Positions 44,937 through 51,638 of a DNA stretch of 64,000 nucleotides are shown here, one piece after another. This DNA comes from an uncultured Candidatus Rokubacteria bacterium (lineage in GTDB: Bacteria > Methylomirabilota > Methylomirabilia > Rokubacteriales > DASRDR01): the NCBI GenBank assembly GCA_963708025.1, contig CAVPSB010000012.1:411195-475194 (forward strand), read 5' to 3'. A program made the translations under genes and the position numbers. The notes below the pieces were generated by a model that saw only the letters and a list, made by a program, of their open reading frames with translations, ran no database searches and was not told where the DNA came from. How positions within the stretch are numbered: the first letter of the stretch is position 1; the number at the start of each line of letters is the position of its first letter.

Positions 44937-47171
<2,235 letters not shown>

Positions 47172-47177
47172 CACGCC

Positions 47178-48020
47178 ATGCGCGAGATCCGGGCGAGCGA
47201 GATCACCGCGACCATCAAGCGCCTCTGCCAGGAGGCCAACCTGGAGCTGGGCGAGGACATGCTGCGCGCCTTCGACCGCGCCCTCGGGCGCGAGCGCTCG
47301 CCGGCCGGCCGCCAGGTCCTGGAGATGATCAGGGAGAACGCCGTCATCGCGAAGACCCGGCGGCTCCCGTACTGCCAGGACACCGGCTTCCTCATCTGCT
47401 TCGTCGAGCTGGGCCAGGACGTCCACGTGACCGGCGGTCTCCTCGGCGACGCCATCGACGAGGGCGTGCGCCAGGGCTACCGGGAGGGGTACCTCCGGGC
47501 CTCGATCGTGCGCGACCCCTTCGACCGGGTGAACACCGGGGACAACACCCCGGCCGTCGTCCACGTGGACGTGGTGCCGGGCGAGCACCTGACCCTCAAG
47601 GTCATGGCCAAGGGCGGCGGCTGCGAGAACCGCTCGAAGTACCGGATGCTGACGCCAGCCGAGGGGTTGGCCGGCGTCAAGGCCTTCATCGTCGAGTGCA
47701 TCAAGACGGCGGGGCCCGACGCCTGTCCGCCCCTGATCGCCGGCGTCGGCGTGGGCGGGACGTTCGAGAAGGCCGCGCTCCTCTCGAAGAAGGCGCTCTT
47801 CCGGGAGATCGGCAAGCCGAACCCGAGCGCGGAGCTGGCCGCCCTGGAGACCGAGCTGCTCGACGAGGCCAACCGCCTGGGCATCGGGCCCCAGGGTTAC
47901 GGCGGCGACACGACGGCCTTGGCCATCCACATCGAGACGTACCCCTGCCACATCACCTCGCTGCCGGTCGCGGTCACGATCGAATGCCACGCCCACCGCC
48001 ACAAGGAGGCCGTCCTGTGA
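47178..48020 (+). CDS. Class I fumarate hydratase alpha subunit
   Basis: CQDTG, NTGDNTPA, KGGGCEN, ACPP, GIGPQGYGG, CHAHRH; inside the TCA operon. Confidence 0.92.
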   Translation: MREIRASEITATIKRLCQEANLELGEDMLRAFDRALGRERSPAGRQVLEMIRENAVIAKTRRLPYCQDTGFLICFVELGQDVHVTGGLLGDAIDEGVRQGYREGYLRASIVRDPFDRVNTGDNTPAVVHVDVVPGEHLTLKVMAKGGGCENRSKYRMLTPAEGLAGVKAFIVECIKTAGPDACPPLIAGVGVGGTFEKAALLSKKALFREIGKPNPSAELAALETELLDEANRLGIGPQGYGGDTTALAIHIETYPCHITSLPVAVTIECHAHRHKEAVL

Positions 48021-48193
48021 TCCGCCGACGGAGCGGGGACCCGGAACCCCCAGGTGGGGGGGTCCAGGGGGGGACCACCGAGAGGGCGGGACGGACGCCC
48101 AGAGGCCGAAGGCCGTCCGAACGACGTAGGCCGAGCGCGTCCCGGCGACCCGATGGTTGGGACTCCCCTTCTGCCAAGGAGGTGGTCCTGTGA
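48017..48193 (+). repeat. Structured repeat copy 1 forming a 58-aa relay mini-ORF
   Basis: GTG overlaps the fumarase-alpha TGA; the ORF ends ...KEVVL*, mimicking ...KEAVL*; repeat core 48040-48173. Confidence 0.8.
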
Positions 48194-48288
48194 GCCGCCG
48201 ACGGAGCAGGGCCCCGGAACCCCCAGGTGGGGGGGGCCAGGGGGGGAGTGGTTGGGACTCCCCCCCTGATAAGGAAGCAGTCCTGTGA
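48190..48288 (+). repeat. Structured repeat copy 2 (short) forming a 32-aa relay mini-ORF
   Basis: MSRRRSRAPEPPGGGGQGGSGWDSPPDKEAVL*; GTGA overlaps at both ends; perfect 12-bp stem CAGGGGGGGAGT/ACTCCCCCCCTG. Confidence 0.8.
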
Positions 48289-48872
48289 GCTACGAGCGCG
48301 TGGGAGAGCTCGTCCACCTGACCACACCCCTCGCGGACGACGACGTCGTCCAGCTGAAGGCGGGGGACCGCGTGCGACTCTTCGGTGTGCTGCTGACGGG
48401 GCGGGACGCCGCCCACAAGCGGCTGATCGAGGCCCTGGACGCCGGGCAGCCCCTCCCGGTCGACGTCCGCGGGCAGATCATCTACTACGTGGGGCCGACC
48501 CCGCCGCCACCCGGCATGGTGATCGGCTCGGCGGGGCCGACGACCGGGGGCCGGATGGACCGGTACGCGCCCCGGCTGATGGCGCTCGGCCTCAAGGGGA
48601 TGATCGGCAAGGGCCACCGCTCCCAGACCGTCCGGGACGCGATGCGCGAGCACAAGTGCGTGTACTTCGGCGCGGTGGGCGGCGCCGGCGCGCTCCTCTC
48701 CCGGTTCATCACGGCGGCCGAGGTGGTCGCCTACGCCGATCTGGGGACCGAGGCCATCCGGCGGCTCACCGTCGAGGACTTCCCGGTCATCGTCGTGGAC
48801 GACACCCACGGCAACGACCTCTACGAGGAGGGCGTGAAGCAGTGGGCCCGCCCCGCGGGAGCACCGTCATGA
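48285..48872 (+). CDS. Class I fumarate hydratase beta subunit
   Basis: GRDAAHKR, YYVGP, GPTTGGRMD, IGKG. Confidence 0.92.
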   Translation: MSYERVGELVHLTTPLADDDVVQLKAGDRVRLFGVLLTGRDAAHKRLIEALDAGQPLPVDVRGQIIYYVGPTPPPPGMVIGSAGPTTGGRMDRYAPRLMALGLKGMIGKGHRSQTVRDAMREHKCVYFGAVGGAGALLSRFITAAEVVAYADLGTEAIRRLTVEDFPVIVVDDTHGNDLYEEGVKQWARPAGAPS

Positions 48873-49024
48873 AGGAGCTGATCGCGACAGCCCGGAACCC
48901 CCAGGTGGGGGGGTCCAGGGGGGGACCACCGGAGGGGCGGTACGGACGCGAGGCCGAAGGCCGAGCGCGTCCCGGCGATCGGACGGTTGGGACTCCCCCC
49001 CTGCTGGAGGTCGCACCGGCATGA
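48869..49024 (+). repeat. Structured repeat copy 3 forming a 51-aa relay mini-ORF
   Basis: ATGA overlaps at both ends; flanks GCACCGTCATGA / GCACCGGCATGA; core 48891-49003. Confidence 0.8.
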
Positions 49025-49828
49025 GCGGCATCACGGCGACGAAGTACCCGGGCGCCGACGGCCGCACCCACGTCGCCGGCATCCTCCGCTGGGACGCCTG
49101 GTGGGTGGAGCCGACCCTGGTGGTGGTCGTGCTCGGCTCCTTCATCCTCTACTCCACCTGGGCCGCGCTCCAGAACGCCTACTACTACGCCCCGCCGTAC
49201 CTCTCGCCGTTTTACTCGCCGTGCCTCTCGACCGAGTGCCTGCACGTGACGGTGCCGCTCTTCGGCAAGCTCCCCCAGCTTCCCGTCATCGGCGTCCTGT
49301 CGCCGGCGTTCCTGATCCTGTGGGCGCCCGGCCTCTTCCGGCTGACCTGCTACTACTACCGCAAGGCCTACTACCGCTCGTTCTGGGGGGCGCCGCCGGC
49401 CTGCGCCATCCCCGACGTCCGGCGGGGCTACACCGGGGAGACCCGCTTCCCGCTGCTCCTCCAGAACCTCCACCGCTACATGTTCTACGTCGCGGTGCTG
49501 TTCATCGTCGTCCTCACCTGGGACGCGCTCCTGGCCTTCCGGTTCCGGGACGGGTTCGGCATCGGGGTCGGGACGCTGGTCATGTGGGCCAACGTGGTCC
49601 TCCTGGCCGGCTACACGTTCTCCTGCCACTCGTGCCGGCACGTCTGCGGCGGGGTCCTCGACGTCTTCTCGAAGTCCCCGGCGCGCTACCGCGCGTGGCG
49701 GCTCGTCAGCCGACTGAACGAGCGCCACCCGACCTTCGCGTGGCTCAGCCTGTTGCGGCGTCGGCCTCACCGACCTCTACATTCGCCTCGTGGCCATGGG
49801 CGTCATCCGCGACCTCCGGATCATCTGA
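49021..49828 (+). CDS. SDH membrane anchor, mycobacterial Sdh1 (Rv0249c-like) type (frameshift at ~49755)
   Basis: SPFYSPC, FRLTCYYYRKAYYRSF, QNLHRY, SCHSCRH; C-terminus ...LTDLYIRLVAMG in another frame. Confidence 0.85.
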
Positions 49829-49838
49829 GGACCACCCG

Positions 49839-51638
49839 ATGGCACGCGTGCCGAGCGAGACCCACGACTACGACGTGATCGTCGTCGGGGCGGGGGGCGC
49901 CGGGCTCCGGGCCGCCGTCGAGGCCTCGGCCCAGGGCGCCAAGACCGCGCTCGTCTGCAAGTCGCTCCTGGGCAAGGCCCACACCGTGATGGCCGAGGGC
50001 GGGATCGCGGCCGCGCTCGGCAACGTGTACCCGGAGGACAACTGGCAGGTCCACTTCCGGGACACCATGCGCGGCGGCAAGATGCTGAACAACTGGCGGA
50101 TGGCTCAGCTCCACGCCCAGGAGGCGCCCGAGCGCGTGCTGGAGCTGGAGCGCTGGGGGGCGCTGTTCGACCGGACCTCGGACGGGCGGATCCTCCAGCG
50201 CGACTTCGGCGGCCACCGCTACGCCCGCCTGGCCCACGTCGGCGACCGGACCGGGCTGGAGATGATCCGGACCCTCCAGCAGCACGCCGTCCATCGCGGC
50301 ATCGACGTGTTCATGGAGGTCACGATCCAGCGCCTCCTCGAGGACGGGGGCCGCATCGCCGGGGCCCTGGGCTACTACCGCGCCACCGGGGAGTTCGTGC
50401 TGTTCCGGACCAAGGCGGTGGTCCTCGCCACCGGCGGGATCGGGAAGGCCTACGCCATCACCTCCAACTCCTGGGAGTACACCGGCGACGGCCACTCCCT
50501 CGCGCTGTGGGCGGGGGCCGACCTGATCGACATGGAGTTCGTCCAGTTCCACCCGACCGGGATGGTGTGGCCGCCGAGCGTGCGGGGCATCCTGGTGACC
50601 GAAGGCGTCCGGGGCGACGGCGGGACCCTCAAGAACAGCAAGAACGAGCGGTTCATGTTCCGCTACATCCCCGAGTTCTTCCGAGCCGAGACCGCGGACA
50701 CCGAGGAGGAGGCCGATCGCTGGTACACGGACAAGAAGGGCGCCCGCCGCACGCCCGACCTCCTGCCGCGGGACGAGGTGGCCCGCGCCATCAACGCCGA
50801 GGTGAAGGCGGGCCGGGGCAGCCCGCACGGCGGCGTGTTCCTCGACATCGCCTCCCGGCGCCCGGCTGACTACATCCAGCGGCGACTTCCCTCGATGTAC
50901 CACCAGTTCAAGGAGCTGGCCGACGTCGACATCACCCGGGAGCCGATGGAGGTCGGGCCGACCTGCCACTACGTCATGGGCGGCGTCCGGGTCGACGCCG
51001 ACTCCGCCGCCTCGACGGTGCCGGGACTCTTCGCGGCCGGCGAGGTGGCCGGCGGCATGCACGGGGCCAACCGGCTCGGCGGCAACTCGCTCTCGGACCT
51101 GATCGTGTTCGGGCGGCGGGCCGGGCTCTACGCGGCGGAGTACGCGAAGGGGATCAAGGGCGCGCCTGCGGTGGACGACGGCCAGGTCGCGGCGATCACC
51201 CGCGAGATCCTGGCGCCGTTCGAGCGGACGGGCGGCGAGAACCCGTACACGATCCAGCGCGACCTCCAGGAGATGATGCACAGCCTGGTCGGCATCATCC
51301 GGACGGAGCCCGAGCTGAAGGAGGCCGTCCAGCGGCTCGAGGCGCTCAAGGACCGGGCGCGGCGGGTCCGGGTCGAGGGCGGCCGGGTCTACAACCCGGG
51401 CTGGCACCTGGCGCTCGACCTCGCCTCGCTGCTCACCGTGTCGGAGGCGGTCACGCTGGCCGCGCTCGAGCGCCGGGAGAGCCGGGGCGGCCACACCCGC
51501 GACGACTACCCGAAGCCGGACGGCCACTTCGCCAAGGTGAACGTCGTCATCCGCCAGTCCAGCGGCCGGATGACCGTGACCCAGGAGCCGCTGCCATCGA
51601 TGCCAGATGAGCTGAAGAAACTCCTGGAGGAGAAGTAG
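49839..51638 (+). CDS. sdhA: Succinate dehydrogenase/fumarate reductase flavoprotein
   Basis: GAGGAG, KAHTVMAEGG, QFHPTG, EGVRGDGG, HGANRLGGNSL. Confidence 0.93.
   Translation: MARVPSETHDYDVIVVGAGGAGLRAAVEASAQGAKTALVCKSLLGKAHTVMAEGGIAAALGNVYPEDNWQVHFRDTMRGGKMLNNWRMAQLHAQEAPERVLELERWGALFDRTSDGRILQRDFGGHRYARLAHVGDRTGLEMIRTLQQHAVHRGIDVFMEVTIQRLLEDGGRIAGALGYYRATGEFVLFRTKAVVLATGGIGKAYAITSNSWEYTGDGHSLALWAGADLIDMEFVQFHPTGMVWPPSVRGILVTEGVRGDGGTLKNSKNERFMFRYIPEFFRAETADTEEEADRWYTDKKGARRTPDLLPRDEVARAINAEVKAGRGSPHGGVFLDIASRRPADYIQRRLPSMYHQFKELADVDITREPMEVGPTCHYVMGGVRVDADSAASTVPGLFAAGEVAGGMHGANRLGGNSLSDLIVFGRRAGLYAAEYAKGIKGAPAVDDGQVAAITREILAPFERTGGENPYTIQRDLQEMMHSLVGIIRTEPELKEAVQRLEALKDRARRVRVEGGRVYNPGWHLALDLASLLTVSEAVTLAALERRESRGGHTRDDYPKPDGHFAKVNVVIRQSSGRMTVTQEPLPSMPDELKKLLEEK

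Follow-up and report, generated by a model that had tools for sequence, protein, structure and literature searches.

In the tricarboxylic acid (TCA) cycle operon of an uncultured Candidatus Rokubacteria bacterium we find three copies of a short, GC-rich, palindromic repeat, here called family A, inserted between genes joined by NTGA, the 4-nt overlap of an upstream stop with a downstream start codon. The copies lie in a 64,000-nucleotide stretch of contig CAVPSB010000012.1 (positions 411,195 to 475,194; "the window"), and each is crossed by a small open reading frame (mini-ORF) that starts in the upstream stop and stops in the next start codon. At a probability of roughly 0.6, we consider that these are non-autonomous double-hairpin repeats residing in what were once plain NTGA junctions, that the surviving copies are those that leave the junction translatable, and that the resulting relay of termination and reinitiation, together with its phase, is kept by selection. 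Judged from the sequence, the mini-ORFs may be translated and their phase selectively retained.

The operon runs in the order aconitase, icd, mdh, fumA, fumB, membrane protein, sdhA, sdhB and sucC, with Pfam matches to aconitase, icd, mdh, Fumerase, Fumerase_C, sdhA, sdhB and sucC along it; the three mini-ORFs matched no Pfam family. The part that holds the inserts is laid out as follows.

47178..48020, + strand: fumarate hydratase class I alpha gene (fumA), an ORF matching PF05681 (E 2.8e-111).
48017..48193, + strand: candidate relay mini-ORF 1, 58 aa, from the GTG overlapping the fumA stop to the TGA overlapping the next GTG.
48047..48168, + strand: family A copy 1, 122-nt form, by sequence match and fold.
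48176..48193, + strand: near-copy of the fumA 3' end with its translation-initiation region, AAGGAGGTGGTCCTGTGA, by sequence comparison.
48190..48288, + strand: candidate relay mini-ORF 2, 32 aa, GTGA to GTGA over 95 nt, ending ..DKEAVL.
48220..48263, + strand: family A copy 2, 44-nt short form with the perfect 12-bp hairpin CAGGGGGGGAGT/ACTCCCCCCCTG.
48271..48288, + strand: second junction near-copy, AAGGAAGCAGTCCTGTGA, which gives fumB its Shine-Dalgarno (SD)-like motif and GTG start.
48285..48872, + strand: fumarate hydratase class I beta gene (fumB), PF05683 (E 1.8e-61).
48869..49024, + strand: candidate relay mini-ORF 3, 51 aa, ATGA to ATGA, 152 nt from junction to junction.
48898..48998, + strand: family A copy 3, the 101-nt form, whose nested module spans about 48926-48984.
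49013..49024, + strand: near-copy of the fumB 3' end, GCACCGGCATGA, 11/12 identical and preceded by GGAGG, which starts the downstream gene.
49021..49878, + strand: downstream gene, an ORF of 285 aa with no Pfam match, followed by sdhA and sdhB.

Two sequence cores define the inserts. The 21-mer CCGGAACCCCCAGGTGGGGGG matches exactly at 48041, 48214 and 48892, where 0.04 matches are expected from shuffles, and GGTTGGGACTCCCC matches exactly at 48155, 48250 and 48985, with one further, unrelated match at 2 mismatches. An earlier note on this DNA had described three related inserts with shared cores at NTGA junctions, and we recover both cores three times without mismatch, along with its mini-ORFs, which are 58, 32 and 51 aa long, and its spacings of 173, 95 and 152 nt, each 2 mod 3. 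Every boundary from fumA to the gene at 49021 is a GTGA or ATGA overlap. The last 18 nt of fumA, AAGGAGGCCGTCCTGTGA (48003-48020), carry an SD-like AAGGAGG and the GTGA stop/start overlap, and near-copies of the same length recur at the ends of the first two inserts; at the third, the fumB end GCACCGTCATGA (48861-48872), an ATGA overlap, recurs as 12 nt, and the 152-nt unit consists of the element plus one copy of this repeat. Mini-ORFs 1 (..AKEVVL; GTG to GTG 173 nt) and 2 close on KEVVL and KEAVL, like the ..HRHKEAVL of FumA, whose C-terminus ..ECHAHRHKEAVL is kept in relatives. Copies 1 and 2 were thought to be a tandem duplication, which our alignment supports, a 33-nt stretch of flank and junction being common to both (score 23, null quantile 0.002); they would form a tandem array whose two units each consist of a junction and an element, and a nested module of 78 nt, a multiple of 3, lies in one of them.

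Copy 1 opens with a small 5' hairpin (CCCCC-AGGT-GGGGG) and has the outer stem CAGGGGGGGA..TCCCC, within which a nested module at about 48075-48154, matching a separate abundant repeat, holds the GGCCGAAGGCC hairpin; among the inserts that hairpin is restricted to copies 1 and 3, the two long ones, as had been claimed. Copies 1 and 2 are read as ..PPGGGVQGG.. and copy 3, in another frame, as ..PQVGGSRGG... The earlier proposal that phase rather than peptide is conserved holds for the inserts themselves, where the frame, and not the peptide, is common; within family A by itself the split of phases is not significantly non-uniform. Open frames of mini-ORF length are not rare at 71% GC (about 0.35-0.55 each by our own estimate), and what is not trivial lies in the recurrence of the core, in the junction copies and in the phase. 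From its position alone, the gene at 49021 probably encodes the succinate dehydrogenase membrane anchor (sdhC below). Its N-terminus, MSGITATK, aligns with MNGITATR and VNAITAAK in two relatives (G006 and G003, respectively; G000 is the genome holding the window, G001 to G017 are other genomes compared, and Cn:pos denotes contig and position in G000). By eye, the left arm of insert 3, MKELIATA, also resembles MSGITATK, which is suggestive.

We picture the history and the use of these inserts as follows. Family A, a non-autonomous GC-rich double-hairpin repeat, would have entered junctions that were once 4-nt NTGA overlaps, with copies placed a few codons past the retained start codon, and the surviving insertions would be those keeping the junction translatable. 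This could be achieved in two ways. The element may be in frame with the downstream gene or, as in this operon, an initiation region comprising an SD-like motif, a spacer and NTGA, taken from the end of the upstream gene, may be re-created at a distance of 3n+2. In the latter arrangement a ribosome halted at the upstream UGA would restart on the overlapping GUG or AUG, traverse the insert while melting its hairpins, end at the next UGA and restart on the real gene. The whole would amount to a termination-reinitiation relay, as put forward for mycobacterial interspersed repetitive units (MIRUs).

Family A is dispersed through the genome (8.17 Mb in 49 contigs, 71.2% GC; listed as 99.67% complete with 8.18% contamination). 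The 21-mer has 22 matches at up to 3 mismatches against 2 for a reversed control, and requiring both cores gives 33 loci with 1 false positive, hence about 32 family A loci. The basic unit of about 44 nt comprises the small hairpin and the perfect 12-bp hairpin, whose arms are joined by GGTTGGG; in one subfamily the long stem carries a compensating extra A-U pair (CAGGAGGGGGAGT/ACTCCCCCTCCTG). Longer forms of about 101, 110, 122 and 88 nt have the top of the loop replaced by a nested module resembling repetitive extragenic palindromic (REP) elements, which includes a GGCCGAAGGCC-type hairpin, itself very abundant in the genome. They exceed the short form by 57, 66, 78 and 42 nt, each a multiple of 3. 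Tandem arrays occur at fum copies 1-2, at C12:62245/62417 and at C18:5360-5630 (3 units), and in relatives at L109 of G006 (at least 3 units) and L107 of G002 (2 units). The peptide varies by locus (PPGGGVQGG.., PQVGGSRGG.., PRWGGPGG.., and antisense frames too). Of the other genomes searched with a 28-mer of the element, 4/20 of the same family contained it, as did 0/20 from other families of the order.

The genome holds hundreds of short hairpin-forming repeats, which form mosaics and are nested in one another. A period of 21 nt recurs among them: at C32:296040-296192 six 5' hairpins of family A follow one another every 21-25 nt, and other repeats contain one or two insertions of a 21-nt hairpin module, GCCACAGGCCGAAGGCCGTCC, which relatives also have close to the purF junction (L169 in G009, L170 in G017). 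One repeat, R1 (116 or 158 nt; C18:331008-331119, C19:16470-16581, C3:26085-26196, C22:249712-249865 and others), has NTGA tetranucleotides as its conserved ends. In 12/12 copies counted at up to 2 mismatches, the threshold of our census since matches at 4 mismatches are mostly spurious, the 5' module is preceded by NTGA at a distance of exactly 13 nt; the sequence preceding the 5' NTGA is unconserved, and 18/22 copies end in NTGA. R1 is the most MIRU-like element of the genome. An abundant R2-type repeat was also considered as a relay cassette and rejected, relays being found at 16/521 copies.

The position of family A relative to genes is strongly biased. The 25 nhmmer hits comprise 20 sense and 3 antisense copies in co-directional gaps and 2 inside called genes, with 0/25 in convergent or divergent gaps; repeated sequence of any kind occupies 30% of co-directional, 38% of convergent and 8% of divergent gaps of 25-400 nt. 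At most loci 9-30 nt separate the end of the core from the downstream start, and a start codon overlaps the upstream stop at 15/19 assessable family A loci, compared with 801/2635 co-directional gaps genome-wide. The conserved core lies 16-55 nt from NTGA, so that the NTGA ends are not part of the family A repeat.

The sense bias would also be expected if the inserts acted as RNA, the hairpins serving as stabiliser, processing site, pause or attenuation signal, or as a G-quadruplex/hairpin switch setting FumA, FumB and Sdh levels, with the frame being secondary. The perfect 12-bp stem and the compensating A-U pair agree with such a role, and the predicted fold of copy 2 pairs the flank with GUCCUGU at the fumB start. 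All three copies carry G7-TCCA-G7 on the sense strand (GGG-G-GGG-TCCA-GGG-G-GGG; 48055-48073, 48228-48246 and 48906-48924), which on reading the sequence fits a four-tract G-quadruplex pattern; the second G run is also used by the hairpin, with which such a quadruplex would be in competition. We nevertheless hold a primarily RNA-level function to be improbable. Folding energies are no better than those of shuffles (z -0.06 to -1.56), a comparison that is uninformative at this composition, and RNAalifold retained the two internal hairpins only. A covarying closing stem formed by the flanks is unsupported, the copy-specific complementarity being -4.87 kcal/mol against -4.55 kcal/mol for the null (p = 0.30), and considered as terminal inverted repeats the flanks are likewise no better than a mismatched control (p = 0.30). 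No Rfam family reached its gathering score in the window, the host genes are functionally unrelated, and copies are also found within coding regions.

Relatives have retained what appear to be the uninterrupted junctions. Bare NTGA overlaps were present in relatives at all three junctions tested. At fumB|sdhC there is a bare ATGA or GTGA overlap in G006 and G003, and in public metagenome contigs (runs X1, X3 and X4) joints across this junction omit exactly 152 nt. At coxS|coxL, inspected by eye, the NTGA overlap lacks an insert in 12/15 relatives. At the purF start, NTGA is found in 15/16 relatives and is followed by a short propeptide, M-K-T-x-W-L-D-D-D-K-F-H-D-E-C or similar, and G005, G009 and G017 have other repeats at this site. 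No clean empty-site joint was found for fumA|fumB in the public contigs; one joint there skips 433 nt and is unexplained.

Where relatives do carry inserts, size differs by multiples of 3. At the C16:402393 junction G002 has a short form (92 nt) and G000 the 122-nt form (170 nt), a change of 78 nt with both remaining GTGA to GTGA and 2 mod 3. At fumA|fumB, G006 (L115) and G001 (L117) have a different hairpin repeat, family B (..GGAAGGGGGGCGGAGCCCCCCTCC..), flanked by a 21-33-nt copy of the fumA end. Its mini-ORFs, of 134 nt ending ..ACHAHRHKEGVL in G006 and 158 nt ending ..NRHKEATL in G001, differ by 24 nt and are both in relay phase; the fumB start is uncertain in G006, where a CTG stands at its position. 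At fumB|sdhC of G001 there is a third repeat, R3, of 230 nt, again GTGA to GTGA and in relay phase, with CCGTGAACGGC duplicated. Family B has 11 hits in G000, 0 of them in the fum operon. All fum-operon junction inserts that we observed, in three genera, are thus 2 mod 3. With about four independent events we estimate the chance of this to be of the order of 1/81, a figure obtained post hoc. The nearest FumB relatives outside the family are from metagenome-assembled genomes labelled Deltaproteobacteria and Binatia.

The same arrangements recur at other loci of G000. Apart from the three window copies, at least 7 further junctions have the relay configuration, and about 8 copies are in frame instead. 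At C12:62201, between coxS- and coxL-like genes (2Fe-2S subunit and molybdopterin subunit), a single ORF of 281 nt spans two copies, one long and one short; other relays are at C14:372484, C16:402393, C18:366504, C49:105159, C23:101241, C22:116017 and C32:161702, and one with the element in antisense orientation is at C25:462289. In-frame reading is found at purF (C12:146036), a FAD-binding gene (C18:152819), C25:336616, C23:134266 and C34:31724. At purF, the ATGA is kept in G000, and a 101-nt form separates the start codon, in frame, from ..DDKFHDEC. No start codon follows the element ahead of the conserved N-terminus of purF, of the FAD-binding gene or of a miaB-like gene in G002, and therefore the element must be read there. 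A further 101-nt copy, antisense, is in frame within an AMP-binding acyl-CoA synthetase-like gene (C14:441587-441687, L126), where it occupies about aa 135-168 of 556 and is spanned by a single Pfam match. Copies also lie within a glnE-like gene (C22:150512-150613) and just before ddl (C22:95427-95471, ..KKLRIGIVFGGRSG); both are in frame solely if G8/C8 runs are taken as 7, and these runs are either assembly errors or slippage-prone. About 8 family A loci are not assessable. Automated classification mis-set the upstream stop at C2:67774, C14:441587, C44:130574 and C22:150512, and those loci were read by eye.

Is the phase selected? Among 331 co-directional gene pairs with gaps of 25-400 nt and NTGA at both ends, phases 0/1/2 were counted 85/95/151 times (phase 2 versus 1, p = 4e-4), and 120/331 form complete relays. 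No such preference appears in controls that have NTGA at one end or at neither (134/156/180, 195/201/229 and 409/395/405). The argument for phase rests on NTGA being enriched at both ends, on conservation across genera and on the multiple-of-3 size changes, and selection on phase is supported only moderately.

Several observations weigh against the relay we favour. The relay-phase excess is equal without repeats (81 vs 47/46) and with them (56 vs 35/32), being strongest in gaps of 25-120 nt (29/36/72 and 11/8/20, respectively), so that it is a general property of junctions in this genome and not of family A. The counts without repeats suggest many short bridging ORFs or unannotated small genes, and some of the excess may be due to the latter; the gene calls came from our own crude caller. 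The earlier note had looked to copies across the genome for a consistent phase. Relay or in-frame reading does recur at other loci and in other genera, but the 15 assessable NTGA-type family A loci divide into 7 relay, 4 in-frame and 4 other, which is not significant, and 3-4 loci follow neither pattern (C18:555238, C22:140467, C19:201645 and C16:166793). Every real gene start has its own SD-like motif, and therefore initiation may not need the relay; open frames are, moreover, common at 71% GC. The run lengths, and so the phases, are not fully secure, because icd is frameshifted and some 8-nt runs need to be 7. In icd (44967..46230) an extra G at ..TACGCCGGGCATCGAGTGG.. (45440-45470) splits the gene into two frames and breaks ..IYAGIEW..; either the assembly has an indel here or this essential gene is really frameshifted. 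Lastly, the public contigs confirm, without gaps, copy 1 alone, the contig pieces listed not spanning copies 2 and 3.

Many of these points would be explained if the ORFs were incidental, that is, if family A and its kind were ordinary spacer DNA, like REPs or MITEs (miniature transposable elements with inverted repeats), left open by GC content, with NTGA supplied by tandem duplication and genes starting unaided. The 7:4:4 split fits chance, 30% of co-directional gaps hold repeats while few R2-type copies form relays, flank duplication is confined to tandem arrays, and junctions can be duplicated with no element present (C15:311829 and C32:288914, below). Five findings are harder to accommodate: three unrelated repeats in the fum operon of three genera are all in relay phase; later size changes were of 78 nt (G000 vs G002) and 24 nt (G001 vs G006); copies are oriented 20 to 3 in the sense direction; the phase excess is limited to gaps with NTGA at both ends; and purF, the FAD-binding gene and the miaB-like gene need the element to be read. 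On balance we regard incidental ORFs as unlikely, if a serious contender.

It is, in our view, very improbable that the inserts, or the lengths they show, arose as errors in a metagenome assembly that is rich in repeats and prone to indels. The icd frameshift, the 8.18% contamination and the odd G8/C8 runs at two loci speak for such errors, yet a contig from run X2 (48043-48211) aligns gap-free, at 3 mismatches, over copy 1 and the second junction, the first junction is present in other contigs, and the same family and architecture are found in separately assembled genomes. Indel errors would blur a phase signal and not create one. For these comparisons DNA runs were used; the public sequencing runs share at most 31% of sampled words, and RNA runs 5-7%.

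The earlier note proposed a small mobile or REP-like element entering by duplication of the junction, and suggested looking for a cognate Y1/RAYT or IS200/IS110-type transposase. A dispersed REP/MITE-like family and, for insert 3, a presence/absence polymorphism of exactly 152 nt are borne out. No Y1/RAYT gene (PF01797) was found in G000 by a search that was positive in 6/14 control genomes. Six IS110-type transposase genes exceed the Pfam cut-off (C14:20670, C13:384521, C15:73035, C31:269824, C31:21355 and C31:30276), with nothing tying them to the element. Entry by junction duplication is not upheld as a rule. Local alignment of flanks exceeds the null 99th percentile (15) in two tandem arrays only, at C12:62245 (50) and fum copy 1 (23), and most single copies have no flank duplication. 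The 12-nt copy at insert 3 stands out in an end-anchored test alone (score 9.5; the shuffled null reaches at least 8 in 3/2635 pairs), and in G006 one copy has beside it, in frame, 45 nt repeated from the 5' end of the gene downstream. The duplicated stretch is often missing altogether and elsewhere ranges between 11 and about 45 nt, which does not fit a fixed-stagger transposase; we therefore reject a fixed-length target-site duplication. A parent element between inverted copies on C23 was also rejected, the sole inverted pair within 2 kb flanking a methyltransferase and a glycosyltransferase, ordinary metabolic genes. Separately, C15:311829-311898 and C32:288914-288980 are tandem duplications of about 70 nt that span an ATGA junction, hold no repeat element and are in relay phase.

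More speculatively, a whole guild of unrelated repeats (family A, family B, R1, R3 and the 21-nt hairpin module) might have been adapted as translated spacers. They could spread independently of a transposase, for example by template switching that copies 11 to about 45 nt of the junction, and chains of relays could set subunit ratios (FumA/FumB, CoxS/CoxL, Sdh). We offer this wider scheme only tentatively. The idea that such inserts tune stoichiometry or mRNA processing, also raised in the earlier note, is not new, having already been described for MIRUs in the account given in PMC12548453.

The relay envisaged for family A has its closest counterpart in MIRUs. These appear to insert at start codons and to disturb expression little, their ORF being coupled to the gene at a -4 spacing (as related in the 2025 review PMC12548453, citing Supply et al. 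1997, Mol Microbiol 26:991). On that account both are short dispersed repeats within operons, in gene orientation and sometimes in tandem arrays, with a repeat ORF coupled to the neighbouring gene by a 4-nt overlap. Family A differs in its host lineage, which judging from its relatives is not mycobacterial, and in its strong palindromic character (two hairpins, with further hairpin modules nested in it), whereas MIRUs are not known to be palindromic; its ends exclude NTGA (those of R1 include it), and it is also found in frame within genes. The likeness is one of architecture, and we do not count family A as a member of the MIRU family. Rickettsia palindromic elements (RPEs), inserted in frame in Rickettsia genes (the 2024 review PMC10969869, summarising Ogata et al. 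2000), share with family A the palindromic structure and in-frame residence in coding genes as part of the host protein (here the purF propeptide, the AMP-binding enzyme and other N-termini). RPEs encode one conserved peptide in one frame and are about 150 bp long, while family A is read in at least 3 frames, lies mostly at gene boundaries and has a 44-nt core. Like REPs, bacterial interspersed mosaic elements (BIMEs) and MITEs, family A is short, GC-rich, hairpin-forming, multi-copy, non-coding, mosaic and nested. Unlike them, it comes with no Y1/RAYT gene that we could find, no fixed-length target duplication and, between the inverted pair on C23, no parent insertion sequence; its terminal inverted repeats are weak, and convergent gaps, a usual place for REPs, contain none of it. 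We found nothing comparable in the literature on relay or junction-overlapping repeats beyond MIRUs, which is a weak basis for claiming absence; to our knowledge, descriptions of relay-type repeats have to date been confined essentially to these mycobacterial elements.

If the relay is real, a MIRU-like solution would exist in an unrelated, uncultured, high-GC lineage, in palindromic form, in several independent families and conserved across genera. Repeat DNA would live inside an operon without cutting off the downstream genes, making the colonisation of operons by selfish DNA without polarity testable, and termination-reinitiation through strong hairpins would likewise become a testable question. 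For annotation, many repeats now taken as intergenic in such genomes are probably translated, and gene starts that lie behind them, as in purF and the FAD-binding gene, would be easily mis-called.

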